From assembly GCA_028691955.1 (NCBI GenBank), contig JAQUYH010000007.1, forward strand, positions 745-64,744: a stretch of DNA of 64,000 bases. Direction: 5' to 3'. This document shows, in pieces, positions 4,896 to 11,572 of the stretch. The position numbers were made by a program, and so were the translations under genes. Source of the DNA: Bacilli bacterium (lineage in GTDB: Bacteria; Bacillota_I; Bacilli_A; RF39; UBA660). Position 1 is the stretch's first letter; each line of letters starts with the position of its first letter. The notes beneath the pieces were generated by a model. The model searched no databases, had not been told where the DNA came from, and was given only the letters and a program-made list of their open reading frames with translations.

Positions 4896-6989
4896 ATGCT
4901 ATTAAACAATTTAAATGAAAAACAAAAAGAAGCAGTAGAACATATAGATGGCCCCTTATTAGTATTAGCAGGGGCTGGAAGTGGTAAAACAAGAGTACTC
5001 ACTATGCGTATTGCTAATCTTATAGAGCACGATATAGATAGTTCTAACATATTAGCCATAACATTTACAAATAAAGCAGCCAAAGAAATGAAAGAGAGAG
5101 TAGTAGAGTTATTAGGACCTATTGCTTATTCCATACAAATATCAACTTTTCATTCATTTGGATTACTCATTTTAAAGAAACACTATGCTGTCTTAGGCTA
5201 TGATAAAAGTTTTACAATACTAGACAGTGACGATTCATTAACTATTGTGAAGAAGATCATGAAAGACCTTAATATAGACCCTAAAGCCTATAATCCCAAG
5301 GCTATTAGAAATAGAATAAGCAGTGCGAAAAATGAATTAGTTGATTCAAAAGAATTTGCCAAATTTATTGGAAATGAATTTGATGATATTACTTATAAAG
5401 TATTTCAAGCTTATGAAACAAAATTAAAACAAAATAGCTCATTAGACTTTGATGACTTATTAATATTACCAATTAAGTTGTTTAGAGATAATCCTGATAT
5501 ATTAAAGTATTATCAAGAGCTATATCAATATATATTAATAGACGAATATCAAGATACCAATGAAGCACAATATATTTTAGTTAAAATGATAAGCGCTAAA
5601 TATAAAAATATTTGCGTTGTTGGAGATGAATCACAATCTATATATTCATTTAGAGGATCAAATTATAGAAATATCTTGAATTTTGAAAAAGATTACAAGA
5701 ATGCAAAAATAATTTTATTAGAAGAAAACTATCGTTCAACGCAAAACATACTAAATGCAGCTAACGATGTTATTAAAAACAACAAAGAAAGAAAAGACAA
5801 GAATCTTTGGACTAAAAATAGTGATGGTAATAAAATTCATTACCATCGATCATTAGATGAAAAAGACGAAGCATTTTATGTGGTAGATGAAATAAAAAAA
5901 GAATTAAAAGGTGGTACATTAAAGCAAAATATAGCTGTTTTATATAGGACCAATGCTCAATCTAGAAATATAGAAGAAGCCTTATTAAGAGAAAACATAC
6001 CATATAAAGTAGTAGGAAGCTTCTATTTCTATAACAGAAAAGAAATCAAAGATTTGATTAGCTATCTAAAGCTAATATATAACTCTAAAGACGATGTAAG
6101 CCTACTTAGAATAATTAATACTCCTAAAAGGGGAATAGGTCTTAAATCAATAGAAAATATAACTTTAAAAGCTAATATGAACAACACTAGTTTATATGAC
6201 TCAATAAATAGCGGCAAAGAATTCGAATTTAAAACTATTATCGAATCATTAAAAGAAGCTGCTAACAATATGTCTTTAACAGAATTAGTAGAAGAGGTTC
6301 TAGTTAAAACAGGAATTAGACAAGAATTAGAAAGTGAAAAATCAATAGAATCAGATATTAGATTAGAAAACTTAGAAGAGTTTAAATCAATTACTAAGAA
6401 TTTCGAAGAAAAAAATGGTATAATATCATTAGATGAATTTTTAATGGAAATTAGTTTAGTAGCAGATATAGAGGAACACCGCAACAACACCGATGTTATT
6501 ACTTTAATGACTGTTCATTCAGCTAAAGGATTAGAGTTTGAGGATGTTTTTTTAGTAGGACTAGAAGAAGGAATATTTCCACATACAAATTCTTTAGATA
6601 GTAAATCAGATATAGAGGAAGAAAGAAGACTATGCTATGTTGCCATAACTAGAGCAAAAGAAAAGTTATGGCTTGTTAATGCAAGAAAAAGAACGCTATA
6701 TGGAATGGATTCCGTAAATCCACCAAGTAGATTCATAAAAGAAATTAGCGAAGAATACTTAGAAAGTGATTCAAAAGCAATAGTACAAGATGTTAATAAA
6801 CAAAAAGCCGTATTTAAAGGTAAAATAGATAAAGATGCAACATATGAAATAGGCGACAATATTATTCATCAAGAATTTGGCAAAGGAATAGTAGTTGGTG
6901 TGGATAAAATGATAGTAACAATTGCTTTTAGTTTTCCACATGGAATAAAAAAAATAATGAAAGGTCATTCTAGTATAAGGAAGGTGTAA
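4896..6989 (+). CDS. pcrA: ATP-dependent DNA helicase PcrA (UvrD family)
   Basis: N-terminal LNEKQKEAV and GAGSGKTRVL Walker A. SF1 helicase motifs throughout. 697 aa. Confidence 0.9.
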   Translation: MLLNNLNEKQKEAVEHIDGPLLVLAGAGSGKTRVLTMRIANLIEHDIDSSNILAITFTNKAAKEMKERVVELLGPIAYSIQISTFHSFGLLILKKHYAVLGYDKSFTILDSDDSLTIVKKIMKDLNIDPKAYNPKAIRNRISSAKNELVDSKEFAKFIGNEFDDITYKVFQAYETKLKQNSSLDFDDLLILPIKLFRDNPDILKYYQELYQYILIDEYQDTNEAQYILVKMISAKYKNICVVGDESQSIYSFRGSNYRNILNFEKDYKNAKIILLEENYRSTQNILNAANDVIKNNKERKDKNLWTKNSDGNKIHYHRSLDEKDEAFYVVDEIKKELKGGTLKQNIAVLYRTNAQSRNIEEALLRENIPYKVVGSFYFYNRKEIKDLISYLKLIYNSKDDVSLLRIINTPKRGIGLKSIENITLKANMNNTSLYDSINSGKEFEFKTIIESLKEAANNMSLTELVEEVLVKTGIRQELESEKSIESDIRLENLEEFKSITKNFEEKNGIISLDEFLMEISLVADIEEHRNNTDVITLMTVHSAKGLEFEDVFLVGLEEGIFPHTNSLDSKSDIEEERRLCYVAITRAKEKLWLVNARKRTLYGMDSVNPPSRFIKEISEEYLESDSKAIVQDVNKQKAVFKGKIDKDATYEIGDNIIHQEFGKGIVVGVDKMIVTIAFSFPHGIKKIMKGHSSIRKV

Positions 6990-6990
6990 A

Positions 6991-7164
6991 ATGGCTGAAA
7001 AAGTTGTAAGTTTTTTCAAATGGTTAGGCGAAGAGCTAAGTCCTATTTCTGATTTTTTCTGGAGTAATAGGCATAATGTCTTTTTATGGATAGGATTACT
7101 TCTATTAGGTTTATTAATATTTAAGCTAACCTATGATGCTCTAACTAGAGGTAGAGAGCAATGA
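6991..7164 (+). CDS. Small hypothetical membrane protein (57 aa)
   Basis: ATG 2 nt after the pcrA stop. A hydrophobic helix (WIGLLLLGLLIF). The TGA stop overlaps the ATG of the next gene (ATGA). Missing from the ORF track because it is under 60 aa. Confidence 0.35.
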   Translation: MAEKVVSFFKWLGEELSPISDFFWSNRHNVFLWIGLLLLGLLIFKLTYDALTRGREQ

Positions 7165-7586
7165 CAACAAATGAAGAAATATTAAAATTAATTAACGATA
7201 AGTTAGTTAAAATTCAAAGTAATGCATGGGGTATAGATAAAGATATAGAATTAAAGAAACAACAGCAAATTATAAAGATTGTTCAAAATTTTATTATAGT
7301 TGTTTCATTAATATTTCTAATATTGTTTTTAATTGATAATTTTAATACCAAATTATTAATAGCAACTATTATTAGCATTGCTATATTTATAATAGTTGCT
7401 GCCTATTTGGCAAGTTTAAAGGCAAAAGTAACACAAATGAGTAAATCAAAAAAAGATTTAGATCAAGAAGCTTTAATACTTCAAAGCGTTAGAAGCTATC
7501 TGCAAGGTAAAATAGCTTTAAATGAAGATATAAAAGAAGAACTAGACAAATTAAACAAAGAGGTGTTAGAATCATTTAATAGTTAA
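7161..7586 (+). CDS. Hypothetical membrane protein with a coiled-coil C-terminus
   Basis: Two TM segments and a RBS. No recognisable family. Confidence 0.5.
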   Translation: MTTNEEILKLINDKLVKIQSNAWGIDKDIELKKQQQIIKIVQNFIIVVSLIFLILFLIDNFNTKLLIATIISIAIFIIVAAYLASLKAKVTQMSKSKKDLDQEALILQSVRSYLQGKIALNEDIKEELDKLNKEVLESFNS

Positions 7587-7596
7587 GAGGTGAAAT

Positions 7597-7953
7597 ATGG
7601 CAAAATATAAGGTAGGCAGCATTATAAAGGGTACAGTTAGTGGTATAGAATCATATGGTATTTTTGTGTCCTTTGAAGAATATTACTCAGGTTTAATACA
7701 TATATCTGAAATATCAGAAAGATACGTAAAAGACCCTCATAACTACGTAAATATAGGGGATATTATTTATACTAAAGTACTAGATGTAGACGAAGAAACA
7801 CTTCATCTAAAGCTAAGTATTAAAAATATAAACTATAAATTAAAAAAGAAATATAAAAAGCATCCAATTGTTGAGACTCCAAAAGGATTTTCAACTCTTG
7901 AAAAAATGTTGCCAATATGGATAAAGGAGAAAATTTCTAAGCAAAAAATATAG
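7597..7953 (+). CDS. S1 RNA-binding domain protein (YugI/general stress protein 13-like)
   Basis: S1 fold sequence (GSIIKGTVSGIESYGIFV...GLIHISEIS). Confidence 0.75.
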   Translation: MAKYKVGSIIKGTVSGIESYGIFVSFEEYYSGLIHISEISERYVKDPHNYVNIGDIIYTKVLDVDEETLHLKLSIKNINYKLKKKYKKHPIVETPKGFSTLEKMLPIWIKEKISKQKI

Positions 7954-7984
7954 CACAAAAAATCACATTTTTTCCTTTTTTTTT

Positions 7985-8013
7985 GTTGACAAACCTAATC
8001 ATAAATGATATAG
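7985..8013 (+). promoter_or_regulatory. Sigma-A-like promoter of the tRNA operon
   Basis: TTGACA, 17-nt spacer, TATAGT, about 20 nt before the first tRNA. Confidence 0.5.
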
Positions 8014-8033
8014 TTGATTATGTCCAATGCATT

Positions 8034-8110
8034 GGGCGATTAGCTCAGTTGGTTAGAGCACCTGCCTTACAAGCAGGGGGTCGTAGGTTCGAGTCCTACA
8101 TCGCCCACCA
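8034..8110 (+). tRNA. tRNA-Val (anticodon TAC)
   Basis: Cloverleaf with GGGCGAT/ATCGCCC acceptor stem, loop CTTACAA, encoded CCA. Confidence 0.9.
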
Positions 8111-8119
8111 TTTATTTTT

Positions 8120-8195
<76 letters not shown>

Positions 8196-8202
8196 TTTTT
8201 AT

Positions 8203-8286
8203 GGAGGGATAGCGAAGTGGCCAAACGCGGCAGACTGTAAATCTGTTCCTTCGGGTTCGATGGTTCAAATCCATCTCCCTCCACCA
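8203..8286 (+). tRNA. tRNA-Tyr (anticodon GTA)
   Basis: Acceptor GGAGGGA/TCCCTCC, anticodon loop with GTA, long variable arm, encoded CCA. Confidence 0.85.
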
Positions 8287-8306
8287 TCTAAGTGTTGTGG
8301 AATAAT

Positions 8307-8381
8307 TGCCTCGTAGCCAAGCGGTAAGGCACCACACTTTGACTGTGGCATGCGCTAGTTCGAATCTAGCCGAGGCAGCCA
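8307..8381 (+). tRNA. tRNA-Gln (anticodon TTG)
   Basis: Acceptor TGCCTCG/CGAGGCA, loop CTTTGAC, encoded CCA. Confidence 0.85.
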
Positions 8382-8393
8382 TCTTATTTATAT

Positions 8394-8469
8394 GTTCCGT
8401 TAGCTCAGTCGGTAGAGCATTTGACTTTTAATCAAAGGGTCTGGAGTTCGAATCTCCAACGGGACACCA
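8394..8469 (+). tRNA. tRNA-Lys (anticodon TTT)
   Basis: Loop CTTTTAA, TΨC arm GGAGTTCGAATCTCC, encoded CCA. Confidence 0.9.
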
Positions 8470-8473
8470 TCGT

Positions 8474-8562
8474 GCCTGAGTGGCGGAATCGGTAGACGCA
8501 CAGGACTTAAAATCCTGCGAGGGTTAAACCTCATACCAGTTCAAGTCTGGTCCCAGGCACCA
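8474..8562 (+). tRNA. tRNA-Leu (anticodon TAA)
   Basis: Loop CTTAAAA, long variable arm, encoded CCA. One A-C mismatch in the acceptor stem. Confidence 0.8.
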
Positions 8563-8623
8563 TCTTTGTTAATTAATATACATAAGTATATTTTTTATAA
8601 TTTTAGCTATTAAATAGCTATGT

Positions 8624-8714
8624 GGAGAAATACCCAAGTCTGGTTGAAGGGACCGGTCTTGAAAACCGGGAGGTCGGCAACGGCGCGGGGGTTCGAATCC
8701 CTCTTTCTCCGCCA
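8624..8714 (+). tRNA. tRNA-Ser (anticodon TGA)
   Basis: Acceptor GGAGAAA/TTTCTCC, loop CTTGAAA, long variable arm, encoded CCA. Confidence 0.85.
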
Positions 8715-8732
8715 TTTAAGTTTTTTTGATAT

Positions 8733-8809
<77 letters not shown>

Positions 8810-8810
8810 T

Positions 8811-8886
8811 GGTCCCGTAGTGTAGCGGTTATCACGTCTGCCTGTCACGCAGAAGATCACCAGTTCGAACCTGGCCGGGACCGCCA
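8811..8886 (+). tRNA. tRNA-Asp (anticodon GTC)
   Basis: Acceptor GGTCCCG/CGGGACC, loop CTGTCAC, encoded CCA. Confidence 0.9.
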
Positions 8887-8894
8887 TTTTAATT

Positions 8895-8970
8895 GGCTCT
8901 GTAGCTCAGTCGGTAGAGCAAAGGACTGAAAATCCTTGTGTCGGTGGTTCGATTCCACTCGGAGCCACCA
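8895..8970 (+). tRNA. tRNA-Phe (anticodon GAA)
   Basis: Loop CTGAAAA, encoded CCA. Confidence 0.9.
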
Positions 8971-8991
8971 TTTAAATTATTAATCCAATTT

Positions 8992-9068
8992 GCGCCCTTA
9001 GCTCAATTGGATAGAGCGTTAGACTACGGATCTAAAGGCTAGGGGTTCGACTCCCTTAGGGCGCACCA
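8992..9068 (+). tRNA. tRNA-Arg (anticodon ACG)
   Basis: Acceptor GCGCCCT/AGGGCGC, loop CTACGGA, encoded CCA. Confidence 0.9.
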
Positions 9069-9089
9069 TTTTGATTATAAAAATTAATT

Positions 9090-9166
9090 CGGAAAATAGC
9101 ACAACTTGGTAGTGCACTTGGTTTGGGACCAAGGGGTTGCAGGTTCAAATCCTGTTTTTCCGACCA
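9090..9166 (+). tRNA. tRNA-Pro (anticodon TGG)
   Basis: Acceptor CGGAAAA/TTTTCCG, loop TTTGGGA, encoded CCA. Last tRNA of the array. Confidence 0.85.
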
Positions 9167-9177
9167 TTCGTTATAGA

Positions 9178-9203
9178 AATCCTTATTTATTAAGGATTTT
9201 TTT
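9178..9203 (+). terminator. Rho-independent terminator of the tRNA operon
   Basis: AAATCCTTA-TTTAT-TAAGGATTT followed by T6. Confidence 0.8.
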
Positions 9204-9319
9204 ATGCTTTCATTTTTTATTTTCTTATAATTATCTTAATAGTTTGAAGAATGAGGCTATTATCAAGTAATGAGCCTGCTACCGATTTAATCGGTGGGGC
9301 AGACTCAGCCTCTATAATT

Positions 9320-9348
9320 TGATACATTTGACACTCCTTTCTATGATA
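9320..9348 (+). promoter_or_regulatory. Promoter with extended -10 (TGATATAAT), preceded by palindrome ACCGATT-T-AATCGGT (9281-9295)
   Basis: TTGACA ... TGATATAAT about 25 nt upstream of the ATG at 9370. A perfect 7-bp inverted repeat lies about 30 nt further upstream. Confidence 0.4.
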
Positions 9349-9369
9349 TAATTTAATTGTGGTGATAGT

Positions 9370-9690
9370 ATGGTTGAATATTTATTTAATTCAAGTGGTG
9401 AATGGATTGCCTTTAAAAAAGGTGACTATCTATATAATAAAGATTGTGAGTGGATTGGATGGTTTCCTTGGGGTGATAATGATGCAGTCAATAATAGTGG
9501 AGAGTATCTTGGAACAATTTGTAAGGAGAATAGATTATATAGAAATCAATTTTCACCTTATAGAGGCTATCCCGGTTATCCTGGTTATCCTGGCTATCCT
9601 GGTTATCCTGGTTATCCTGGATTTGCAGGTCATTCATCATTACCATGGAATATGTATGATATTCCAAAAACATTTTTGAGGAGGCAGTAG
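9370..9690 (+). CDS. Small Trp-rich protein with C-terminal (GYP)n tandem repeat; unknown function
   Basis: A GGTGA RBS precedes the ATG. The protein contains EWIGWFPWGDND and GYPGYPGYPGYPGYPGYPGF. Its stop lies 1 nt before the next gene's ATG. The alternative overlapping frame (9359-9679) looks non-protein-like. Confidence 0.5.
   Translation: MVEYLFNSSGEWIAFKKGDYLYNKDCEWIGWFPWGDNDAVNNSGEYLGTICKENRLYRNQFSPYRGYPGYPGYPGYPGYPGYPGFAGHSSLPWNMYDIPKTFLRRQ
9566..9620 (+). repeat. About six tandem copies of the 9-bp unit GG(T/C)TATCC(T/C), in frame, encoding (GYP)n
   Basis: Direct reading: ggctatccc ggttatcct ggttatcct ggctatcct ggttatcct ggttatcct. Confidence 0.85.
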
Positions 9691-9691
9691 T

Positions 9692-10360
9692 ATGAGTCAA
9701 GATGAGTTAACTAAACACTCTAGGGCAATTTTAGATAGTGCAAAAGATACAATAAATTCTTTTTTTGAAATATACGATAATTCTAAGAAAAAGATTACTG
9801 AGCAAAATCAGGATCTATTGCGTGCGATAATACTTTTTTCTGGTTCAACAATAGATGCTATTATAAAAAAATTAATAAATGATACAATCCAGGAGGTAAT
9901 TGATAGAGATGATGGAGCAAATAGTGAATTTAAGGATTTTGTTAGTAAAACTATACAAGACAGTAAAAACATTATAAATTCAAAGTTATTATCTGAGTTG
10001 TTTGTTTGCAATAGTCCTAAAGAACAATTAATTATTGAATTGAAAAAAAATTTAACCCATAATAGCTTACAAAGTGCAGATGAAATTGCTAAAACTATTG
10101 GATATTTTGGAATTCCAACTAAAGAGTTGCCAATAAAAATTGATGAATTGAAAAGTTTGTTTATTGTTAGAAATAAAATTATGCATGAAATGGATGTGAA
10201 ATTGGACTCATCAACTTTTATAAGAAATGACAGGTCAAAAGTTGAGGCTAAAAAAATTTCAAATGAGCTTTTAAACTTATCAGAATGTTTGATAGATCTT
10301 GTTGAAAAGAAATTAAAACAACCACTCATTGAAGAAAGAGTTACATACCTGGTGATATAA
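9692..10360 (+). CDS. HEPN-like protein (R-x4-H motif RNKIMHE); candidate RNase toxin / Abi component
   Basis: A GGAGG RBS. 222 aa, predicted helical. The C-terminal region carries RNKIMH, matching the HEPN Rx4-6H signature. No other family was recognised by eye. Confidence 0.45.
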   Translation: MSQDELTKHSRAILDSAKDTINSFFEIYDNSKKKITEQNQDLLRAIILFSGSTIDAIIKKLINDTIQEVIDRDDGANSEFKDFVSKTIQDSKNIINSKLLSELFVCNSPKEQLIIELKKNLTHNSLQSADEIAKTIGYFGIPTKELPIKIDELKSLFIVRNKIMHEMDVKLDSSTFIRNDRSKVEAKKISNELLNLSECLIDLVEKKLKQPLIEERVTYLVI

Positions 10361-10420
10361 TTAAAACTATTTAATTAAATAATAGAAAGTTTATTTTAAA
10401 TATAGTTAAAGGAGAATTTT

Positions 10421-11332
10421 ATGAATGTTAATGATATTTTAGGCTTAGGGAAAATGACTGATAAGCTTTTAAATACAATTGGAAAAGGATTGGGATGGTA
10501 TTTAGAACCCAAGCAAATTATTAGAAAGGCAAAAGCCACAAAAAAGGCTTATGAACTATTACATGATGTTAAACAAAATCATAATTTTTTGGTTTCTGTA
10601 AAATCTGAAGATATTGCAGTTGAAGAAATTCTACCAGATATAAATCAAGGCCTAATTGAAAAAGAAATTATTCAAAATTATCAAGCTCTTGAAATAGTTG
10701 AAAAAGCATTAAGTATGATAGATATAAAACAACCTGTTTCAGATAAAGAAATAGATGAACAGTGGATTGATAGATACTTTGATAGTATCAAAAAAATCAC
10801 AAATGAAGAAGTAAAAGTAATTTGGGCAAAAATTTTGGCAGATACAGTCACTGAAAAAAAAGAATATTCAATTAGGACTCTTGATTTTCTTAGAAGCCTG
10901 TCTAATGCAGAAGCCTTGGTTTTCACTAAGTTAGAAGGTCTAGCATTTAAGCAAGGAAGAGAGCTTCTACTACCAAATTTTGAAGAATTTAACAATAAGT
11001 ATAGTATAAGAAAGCAAGATTTATGGCTTTTAGAGGAATTAGGTATATTAAAGGAGGGATTAATCTTGACGATTCCACAAGAAAAAGGAATTTATATATA
11101 TGAAAACAGTGTAGTCATTGTTTCTCCAAAAAATGGAAAAGACGAAAAATTAAATATATACAAGTTTACCAATATGGGTATCGAACTATACAACTTGCTT
11201 GGTGGTAACAGAAAAGTTAATATTAATGAATATTGCACCTTTGTTTTTAAAAGGAAAGGCGATGTTAAAGTAGGAAAAATAACAAGTATTTCTTATGATA
11301 TGGCTCATCATGAACCATTAATAGAAATTTGA
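10421..11332 (+). CDS. Hypothetical 303-aa protein, third gene of the island operon
   Basis: An AAGGAG RBS. Soluble, with no motif I recognise. Co-oriented with the HEPN-like gene. Confidence 0.5.
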   Translation: MNVNDILGLGKMTDKLLNTIGKGLGWYLEPKQIIRKAKATKKAYELLHDVKQNHNFLVSVKSEDIAVEEILPDINQGLIEKEIIQNYQALEIVEKALSMIDIKQPVSDKEIDEQWIDRYFDSIKKITNEEVKVIWAKILADTVTEKKEYSIRTLDFLRSLSNAEALVFTKLEGLAFKQGRELLLPNFEEFNNKYSIRKQDLWLLEELGILKEGLILTIPQEKGIYIYENSVVIVSPKNGKDEKLNIYKFTNMGIELYNLLGGNRKVNINEYCTFVFKRKGDVKVGKITSISYDMAHHEPLIEI

Positions 11333-11454
11333 TATAAGAATATTCTCTTAATATTCTCTTAAAATAAGAAATAAATAAGCAAAAAAGACTCTCTATGAAA
11401 ATAGAAAGCCTTTTAAAATAAAGATTAGAAAATTCTGGAATAAACAAATCTAGT

Positions 11455-11482
11455 CCTGTTTTCTCGACCATTGTTATAAAAT
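11455..11482 (+). repeat. Degenerate copy of the tRNA-Pro 3' end (candidate attR)
   Basis: About 25 of 28 positions match 9151-9180. Confidence 0.45.
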
Positions 11483-11572
11483 TCAACCTTGATATAAATG
11501 TATAAAACTATGAATTTTTTTATAGTTTTATTTTTCATACAAAATAATATATAATATATTTAGGTGATGAAG

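Follow-up and report, generated by a model that had tools for sequence, protein, structure and literature searches.

A beta-flower/HEPN gene pair and a DUF2806 gene on a probable anti-phage mini-island at a tRNA-Pro gene of a Bacilli bacterium

The cassettes of the Vibrio cholerae chromosomal integron were tested by Darracq et al., who named 16 new anti-phage systems (bioRxiv 10.1101/2024.07.02.601686), and families found among these systems meet again in the locus described here, a row of three small genes directly 3' of a tRNA array in a 64,000-nucleotide stretch of the genome of a Bacilli bacterium (NCBI GenBank assembly GCA_028691955.1, contig JAQUYH010000007.1, positions 745 to 64,744 of the forward strand; hereafter the window). 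Among the cassettes is Cernunnos, a single gene whose product has a PF21784 domain and which a second, independent cassette screen also recovered (10.64898/2026.03.17.712381). Another, Belisama, is a single DUF2806 gene with homology to Abi-alpha that is toxic on expression and brings about strong unrecoverable lysis at high multiplicity of infection, and a third, Esos, is a single-gene system with an HEPN-like domain only (10.1101/2024.07.02.601686). Abi-alpha itself (PF14337), from prophage 6 of Enterococcus faecalis, causes premature lysis, and its authors noted a resemblance to PF10987, that is, DUF2806 (PMC6356687). HEPN domains of the PF18735 type have been listed in PD-T4-2, PD-T4-5, PD-T7-3 and ApeA (PMC10952713), and the RiboL-PSP HEPN clade has been described as a distant relative of AbiD/AbiF (Anantharaman et al. 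2013, PMC3710099). The beta-flower families PF21784, PF21785 and PF21786 were named by Durairaj et al. (2023, Nature; PMC10584680) as a structural novelty without known function, that paper assigning them neither a function nor a gene context; a member of the fold, Cernunnos, was shown in 2024 to block phages by a mechanism that is not known.

The three genes, here called A (106 amino acids, aa), B (222 aa) and C (303 aa), had been read in an original prediction, made without database searches, as one operon coding for a toxin or abortive-infection module of a new type. Our analyses favour a very small anti-phage island as the likeliest nature of the locus, rather than a novel system of three genes. 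With a probability that we put at roughly 0.6, positions ~9226 to 11448 constitute an integrase-less mini-island at the 3' end of a tRNA-Pro gene, carrying two independent conflict modules, the pair A+B and the single gene C. For the three genes, defence or abortive infection is the likeliest role, and the pairing of A with B appears to be new; to that extent the predicted novelty stands, whereas the components are of known kinds. What had looked like a mystery three-gene operon would thus become a mini defence island of two modules, integrated at tRNA-Pro. The features on which this reading draws are the following.

9145..9225, + strand: left att-like repeat, in which the T-arm and acceptor end of tRNA-Pro (its 3' part) are followed by the terminator hairpin and T-run; direct-repeat families D6 and D7
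9370..9690, + strand: gene A, coding for a 4-fold beta-flower protein of 106 aa whose C-terminus bears a conserved (GYP)6-GFAG triplet tract
9558..9629, + strand: GYP-encoding tract in gene A, six tandem 9-nt units (direct-repeat family D3)
9692..10360, + strand: gene B, a 222-aa RiboL-PSP-type HEPN protein, predicted RNase effector
10421..11332, + strand: gene C, a 303-aa DUF2806 protein (Belisama / Abi-alpha-related family), judged an independent module
11449..11545, + strand: right att-like repeat, in which the tRNA-Pro 3' end and terminator region recur in degenerate form, ~80% identical to the left one

Three genes between att-like repeats

The 12 tRNA genes occupy positions 8034-9166 of the + strand, directly 5' of the three genes as had been reported, and their operon ends in a terminator of its own, a hairpin with a T-run at 9172-9204. 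The left repeat includes the last ~22 nt of tRNA-Pro, and the right copy lies just 3' of gene C. The local alignment of the two scores 42 against 21.6 +/- 3.2 in dinucleotide shuffles (0/1000 reach 42; z ~6), and this score surpasses that of each of the 540 other windows in the 64-kb sequence. The right copy (11449-11545) contains no called tRNA gene. A, B and C are the sole genes between the repeats, with no integrase inside, and the flanking genes are housekeeping ones: one flank holds PcrA/UvrD, an S1-domain protein and the tRNA array, and the opposite flank an NTPase_I-T protein. Because att-like repeats bracket the three genes within housekeeping flanks, we consider A, B and C to be carried on an insertion of ~2.3 kb at the tRNA-Pro 3' end, in agreement with the original prediction of cargo at a tRNA hotspot. 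The repeats look like attL and attR of an integrase-less 2.3-kb insertion, which would be an island that has decayed or one that hitch-hikes. As had been noted before, the surroundings of A-B-C hold no integrase, restriction-modification or CRISPR genes. The GC content of the island is indistinguishable from that of its host, the contig being of low GC (27.9%), and exact look-ups of the flanking proteins found no empty site or closely related strain.

Within the insertion, the compact layout that had been described is confirmed by the coordinates of the open reading frames (ORFs). All three lie on the + strand, the stop codon of A 1 nt before the ATG of B and genes B and C 60 nt apart, and a Shine-Dalgarno-like sequence (GGTGAT for A, GGAGG for B, AGGAG for C) is present 4-8 nt 5' of each ATG. 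An alternative genetic code with TGA read as Trp was considered and rejected, since TGA terminates 15/59 long ORFs and the long housekeeping ORFs are uninterrupted.

The beta-flower/HEPN pair

Gene A is assigned to the 4-fold beta-flower family PF21784, as a member of the GYP-repeat type, and can therefore no longer be regarded as a protein without a place. It has 389 detectable homologues, typically 50-70% identical over >90% of its length, in Vibrio, Actinomycetota, Cyanobacteria, Acidobacteriota and many other groups, and many of those at 55-69% identity are named '4-fold beta flower protein' by NCBI or bear precomputed PF21784 hits. In the structure predicted for A, 8 short antiparallel strands form a shallow barrel (four hairpin 'petals') with [DNEQ]xxG hairpin tips, and the model has no similarity to solved (PDB) structures. 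A shallow 8-stranded barrel of hairpin petals with [DN]xxG tips, again with no PDB match, is what the available text of PMC10584680 describes for PF21784-PF21786, but a period-3 Pro-rich C-terminal tract and an HEPN partnership are not mentioned in that text. The (GYP)n repeat seen in the original prediction corresponds to the six 9-nt tandem units at 9558-9629. Cernunnos has the domain PF21784, the family and fold to which A is assigned, and is likewise a small cytoplasmic protein with no known mechanism; on the other hand, Cernunnos is a single gene, whereas A here and the beta-flower in >75 other loci are translationally coupled to an HEPN gene. GYP-type relatives of A are also found as solo integron cassettes in V. 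metschnikovii.

In two strains of that species, the same 106-aa solo GYP beta-flower gene (L093:4001-4321 and L094:4001-4321), 61% identical to A, sits amid short cassette-like ORFs and toxin-antitoxin pairs, and its neighbours differ between the two strains, which is consistent with a mobile integron cassette. A blastn search with the Vibrio GYP-type gene against E. coli genomes gave no match, and no link to the GYP type was established for the reported E. coli prophage homologues of Cernunnos. From phage and plasmid collections A, B and C are essentially absent; two plasmid 'beta-flower' genes code for longer proteins and have no adjoining HEPN gene. It was also observed that database protein entries identical at 100% (NCBI metagenome-assembled-genome annotation) exist for B and C and none for A; gene A may thus be unannotated in the deposited record, and an out-of-frame 106-aa ORF at 9359-9679 overlaps it and could have misled gene callers.

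Gene B matches PF18735 (RiboL-PSP-HEPN) with 40.5 bits against a cut-off of 28.4, its residues 18-205 aligning to model positions 7-190 of 191, and precomputed PF18735 hits are present in 28/35 listed homologues, B itself counted. The R-x4-H motif that had been recognised in the middle protein is RNKIMH at residues 160-165, encoded at 10169-10186. R160, N161, H165, E166 and D168 (an RNxxxHExD motif) are invariant across 23 full-length homologues, their conservation still reaching at least 90% in a set of 35 sequences, fragments among them, and the motif is kept in the divergent loci L126, L135, L138 and L142. The model of B is all-alpha and matches HEPN folds, the best structural matches including HepT toxins and the HEPN domain of AbiA. 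Family, motif and fold together make B a predicted HEPN endoribonuclease.

HEPN fold and Rx4H motif are shared by B with HepT-MntA (a type VII toxin-antitoxin system), RnlA-RnlB, AbiD/AbiF, AbiV, AbiJ, HepS, ApeA and PD-T4-2/PD-T4-5/PD-T7-3, the last four also having PF18735 in common with it, and HepT-MntA and RnlAB further resemble A-B in placing a small HEPN protein beside a small partner gene. The partner of B, however, is a beta-flower and not an MNT nucleotidyltransferase or RnlB, and neither A nor C contains an MNT domain. Unlike the members of the RiboL-PSP HEPN clade associated with L-PSP/RidA or ParB fusions (PMC3710099), B has no such fusion, and unlike ApeA and the PD-T systems it gives no PADLOC hit. 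Matches of B to PDC-M01B (15.7 bits over a partial region) and of C to E1-E2 (16.9 bits) in the PADLOC/PHROGs scans were both judged to be noise, and a PHROGs scan of A, B and C found nothing significant.

The evidence that A and B form a unit comes from their neighbourhoods in other genomes. A scan with the A alignment, keeping one genome per species, gave 80 beta-flower loci from representative genomes, and in 44/80 of these loci a B-family gene lies directly 3' of A. The A-B junctions indicate translational coupling, 15 loci having a spacing of -4 nt, 9 one of -1 nt and 4 one of 0 nt. The hosts of the pair belong to >10 phyla and include Cyanobacteria, Acidobacteriota, Chloroflexota, Latescibacterota, Omnitrophota, Nitrospira, Alphaproteobacteria, Bacteroidota, Saccharibacteria and Nomurabacteria (candidate-phyla-radiation lineages), Planctomycetes, Spirochaetes and Bdellovibrionales. 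Seen from the other gene, a GYP-bearing A-like gene stands immediately 5' of B in 9/9 neighbourhoods of close B homologues. Among 43 metagenome loci found from the B side, A is upstream in 31 and downstream in 1, a PIP-repeat PF21784 protein is immediately downstream in 3, contig ends cut 5, and 4 are without a partner (one of them truncated by an insertion sequence), such that a beta-flower gene adjoins B in 35/43 loci, or 35/38 once those ending at a contig edge are set aside. Over 64 distinct pairs, distances among A proteins correlate with those among B proteins (Mantel r = 0.62, 0/999 permutations), A being the more conserved of the two, with a mean identity of 57% vs 41%. A literature search found no paper tying beta-flower proteins to HEPN genes, and the pairing of a beta-flower that has a triplet-repeat tail with a RiboL-PSP HEPN protein appears to be undescribed so far.

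The partnership also extends beyond the GYP type. The three most divergent B genes are each followed immediately by a gene for a 117-120-aa strong member of PF21784 (105-119 bits) with a (PIP)n tail.

L135:2018-2377, L138:4651-5013 and L142:4549-4902: PIP-type beta-flower genes 3' of divergent B genes, with PIPPIPP-type triplet repeats

These downstream partners suggest that the association of beta-flower and HEPN protein has been kept across two tail chemistries and both gene orders. An association of this HEPN clade with small beta-hairpin-repeat proteins may be broader still, because in Fusobacterium nucleatum ATCC 25586 a RiboL-PSP-HEPN gene is reported to adjoin a YwqK-type (MORN-variant repeat) 'antitoxin' gene (FN0845/FN0846; 10.1101/2025.08.21.671586) and the structural neighbours of beta-flowers include MORN-variant proteins (PMC10584680). 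In one of the three PIP-type loci, a second, classical HEPN-domain gene (PF05168; L138:3266-3778) is located just upstream of the pair. In L011, L043, L052 and L069, A is intact and the downstream B either is broken into two ORFs or has shifted by 150-430 nt, suggesting that B decays while A is retained.

Such a distribution would also be expected of a selfish toxin-antitoxin addiction cassette composed of a toxin, B, and a labile proteic antitoxin, A. The cassette would mainly secure that it is itself maintained on mobile elements, a dedicated anti-phage function would be lacking, and C would be unrelated cargo. This is the main rival explanation, and it finds support in the compactness of the pair, with the small gene first and overlapping or 1-nt junctions, in its patchy occurrence across many phyla at scattered insertion sites, in the co-variation of A and B distances, in the A-B loci that adjoin recombinases and in the solo GYP beta-flower lying among toxin-antitoxin cassettes in Vibrio integron arrays. 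We nevertheless regard it as unlikely, as A has no DNA-binding domain of the kind usual in type II antitoxins, exceeds B in conservation and is often solo, the latter two unusual for an antitoxin, and a cassette with a beta-flower domain protects against phage by itself. Some close-homologue A-B loci adjoin serine recombinases or sit in type I restriction-modification, OLD-UvrD (Gabija-like), AbiA or Fic islands, and several positions inside restriction-modification, Gabija-like or AbiA islands speak for defence rather than mere addiction; one A-B context is a viral contig. Addiction and defence are compatible roles, and the defence role is the one that we favour for the pair.

Gene C as a separate module

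Gene C, the other protein that had seemed unplaceable, is a standard DUF2806 protein. It matches PF10987 with 83.1 bits against a cut-off of 24.5, and its family comprises 3735 cluster representatives at E<=1e-3, aligning over the full length to members of ~300-340 aa, the highest identity to any representative being 36%. With A and C so assigned, both belong to families with validated anti-phage cassettes. DUF2806 is matched by 64/64 scanned relatives of C and Abi_alpha also, weakly, by 10/64 (best E = 5e-5), whereas C itself has no hit to Abi_alpha PF14337 at E<=1, which makes C a remote relative of Abi-alpha and not a member of its family. No solved structure was detectable for C by sequence. 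By family, C resembles Belisama and Abi-alpha as a full-length DUF2806 protein on mobile DNA whose gene may stand alone; the phenotypes of that family are toxicity and premature or unrecoverable lysis. It differs in its source, a metagenome-assembled genome of a low-GC member of the Bacilli and not of the Pseudomonadota.

The alternative that A, B and C make up one operon-encoded three-component system, close to what the original prediction had proposed, rests on their being co-oriented, closely spaced and together between the att-like repeats, with no strong terminator between B and C. Comparison with other genomes renders it highly improbable. No DUF2806-like ORF was found in the other loci L001-L147 (except L092, L095), >75 of which bear A-B, and the closest relative of the pair, L001, with 75% (A) and 60% (B) identity, is without C. 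Nor is there another conserved third gene, the nearest neighbours of A-B in 43 genomes representing 81 Pfam families among 85 proteins with none recurrent. Belisama and Abi-alpha act as single genes, and the closest relative of C from a word-based search, P0037 (28% identity), is a solitary gene on an integrative element that also carries Rep_trans, an integrase and ParE. Whether homologues of the small and the 303-aa genes co-occur with HEPN genes elsewhere had been raised as a check on the operon; in the loci covered here, the 106-aa gene does and the 303-aa gene does not. A-B is the conserved unit and C lies outside it.

Promoter-like and structured elements around the genes were examined as well.

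9271..9307, + strand: G+C-rich hairpin GCCUGCUACCGAUUUAAUCGGUGGGGCAG, located in an AT-rich spacer that separates the tRNA terminator from the promoter of A; -18.3 kcal/mol, z = -2.9 vs shuffles
9344..9352, + strand: extended -10-like motif TGATATAAT, candidate promoter of gene A
10353..10361, + strand: second exact TGATATAAT, overlapping the B stop codon, 59 nt 5' of the C ATG; candidate separate promoter of gene C

The extended -10 that had been assigned to a single promoter is present at 9344-9352, but its sharing by all three genes is unproven, because TGATATAAT occurs near chance frequency and an identical TGATATAAT precedes C. The window contains 7 copies against 4.3 expected by chance, without statistical enrichment, and promoter-like matches around A-B-C are no more frequent than in shuffles. 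The copy at 10353-10361 suggests that C is transcribable on its own and, along with the lack of a C-like gene elsewhere, the heterogeneous neighbours of A-B and the solitary P0037, points toward independence of C from A-B. An Rfam scan of the A-B-C region returned tRNAs only, with no match for the hairpin at 9271-9307, which could be a candidate element end, a regulatory site or a remnant.

Possible roles of the two modules

In the reading of the locus as a two-module island, A+B would be a self-contained, horizontally mobile two-gene cassette. B would act as effector or toxin, dimerising like other HEPN toxins to form a composite Rx4H active site, and would cut tRNA, rRNA or mRNA and thereby stop translation. 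A, presumably a small cytoplasmic beta-flower made in fixed ratio with B through translational coupling, would bind B and hold it inactive. Its period-3 Pro-rich tail, (GYP)n here or (PIP)n in other lineages, is probably a polyproline-II-like segment and a candidate for the element that occludes or gates the active site of B. Phage infection might then remove, titrate or re-shape A, or A might engage a phage product, in either case releasing B, and the outcome would be a toxin-antitoxin-like abortive infection. The second module, C, would act alone, its family suggesting a Belisama- or Abi-alpha-like premature lysis or death of infected cells. More generally, we tentatively propose, with a confidence somewhat short of even, that beta-flowers with a period-3 Pro tail, (GYP)n or (PIP)n, are dedicated partners of one HEPN RNase clade and form with it an unrecognised, horizontally spread two-gene abortive-infection or toxin-antitoxin family, in which the tail plugs or gates the HEPN site or is recognised by a phage trigger.

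Several observations weigh against this interpretation of the locus. The match of A to the PF21784 profile, 21.9 bits, is below the cut-off of 25, and the profiles of GYP-type and PIP-type beta-flowers match each other weakly (hhalign E = 0.012). None of the three genes has a significant hit among the PADLOC models, one of the searches that the original prediction had called for. In environmental genomes A-B shows weak enrichment for defence islands, its neighbours there including many housekeeping genes. At the locus itself, read-through transcription from B into C is possible, the 60-nt gap having no G+C-rich terminator. Finally, A contains no HTH, RHH or AbrB domain, and hence no DNA-binding domain, unlike classical type II antitoxins, and GYP-type beta-flowers also occur solo, in 36/80 loci, in Vibrio integron cassettes and in many Leifsonia genomes. 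This frequent solo occurrence and the single-gene nature of Cernunnos suggest that A is not merely an antitoxin and may be an active or sensing component.

The role of A is the main uncertainty: solo beta-flowers are common and Cernunnos protects alone, so that sensing or even the primary action may fall to A, and B may be an added output. In its full form, this alternative makes A, as a Cernunnos-like protein that senses or sequesters a phage product, the primary anti-phage component, a sensor or adaptor and not an inhibitor, which activates B, an accessory output recruited by some lineages. The sampled loci offer it some ground, as solo beta-flowers form integron cassettes, B is almost never without a beta-flower partner while A is often without B, A is the more conserved partner and both gene orders occur. 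We hold it to be still less probable than a purely selfish cassette, since a free, constitutively expressed HEPN RNase normally requires an inhibitor and the tight translational coupling with A first is what would be expected of a neutralising partner. There is also no indication of A binding phage components, and Cernunnos may have the fold in common without being of the GYP type. Neutralisation of B by A is retained as the preferred mechanism for the pair. A beta-flower subfamily repeatedly coupled to an HEPN RNase, in both orders and with two tails, provides a testable handle on the fold, as inhibitor, sensor or adaptor of an RNase; if the proposal is true, the 'dark' beta-flower fold and the Cernunnos defence gene gain a first mechanistic context, and A-B would add a candidate defence or toxin-antitoxin module of ~1 kb that is missed by current defence-finding hidden Markov model sets.

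The idea that A is the partner of interchangeable effectors (Piwi, deaminase, HNH) was rejected as unsupported, defence-hotspot neighbours being a better fit than operon partners. In three Flavobacteriaceae loci (L053, L078 and L084, ~5680-11300), a syntenic block ends with a small upstream ORF and a GYP beta-flower gene and is followed by variable cargo. The small ORF of L053, the only one of the three that was scanned, is an XRE-type HTH gene. In the cargo after the beta-flower, L053 has a Piwi-domain protein of 703 aa and L078 a deaminase-domain protein of 678 aa, and in L084 ORFs of matching sizes (680, 243 and 703 aa) follow in another order. Because the Piwi and deaminase genes change order in the cargo region, these loci fit a defence hotspot on a conserved element.

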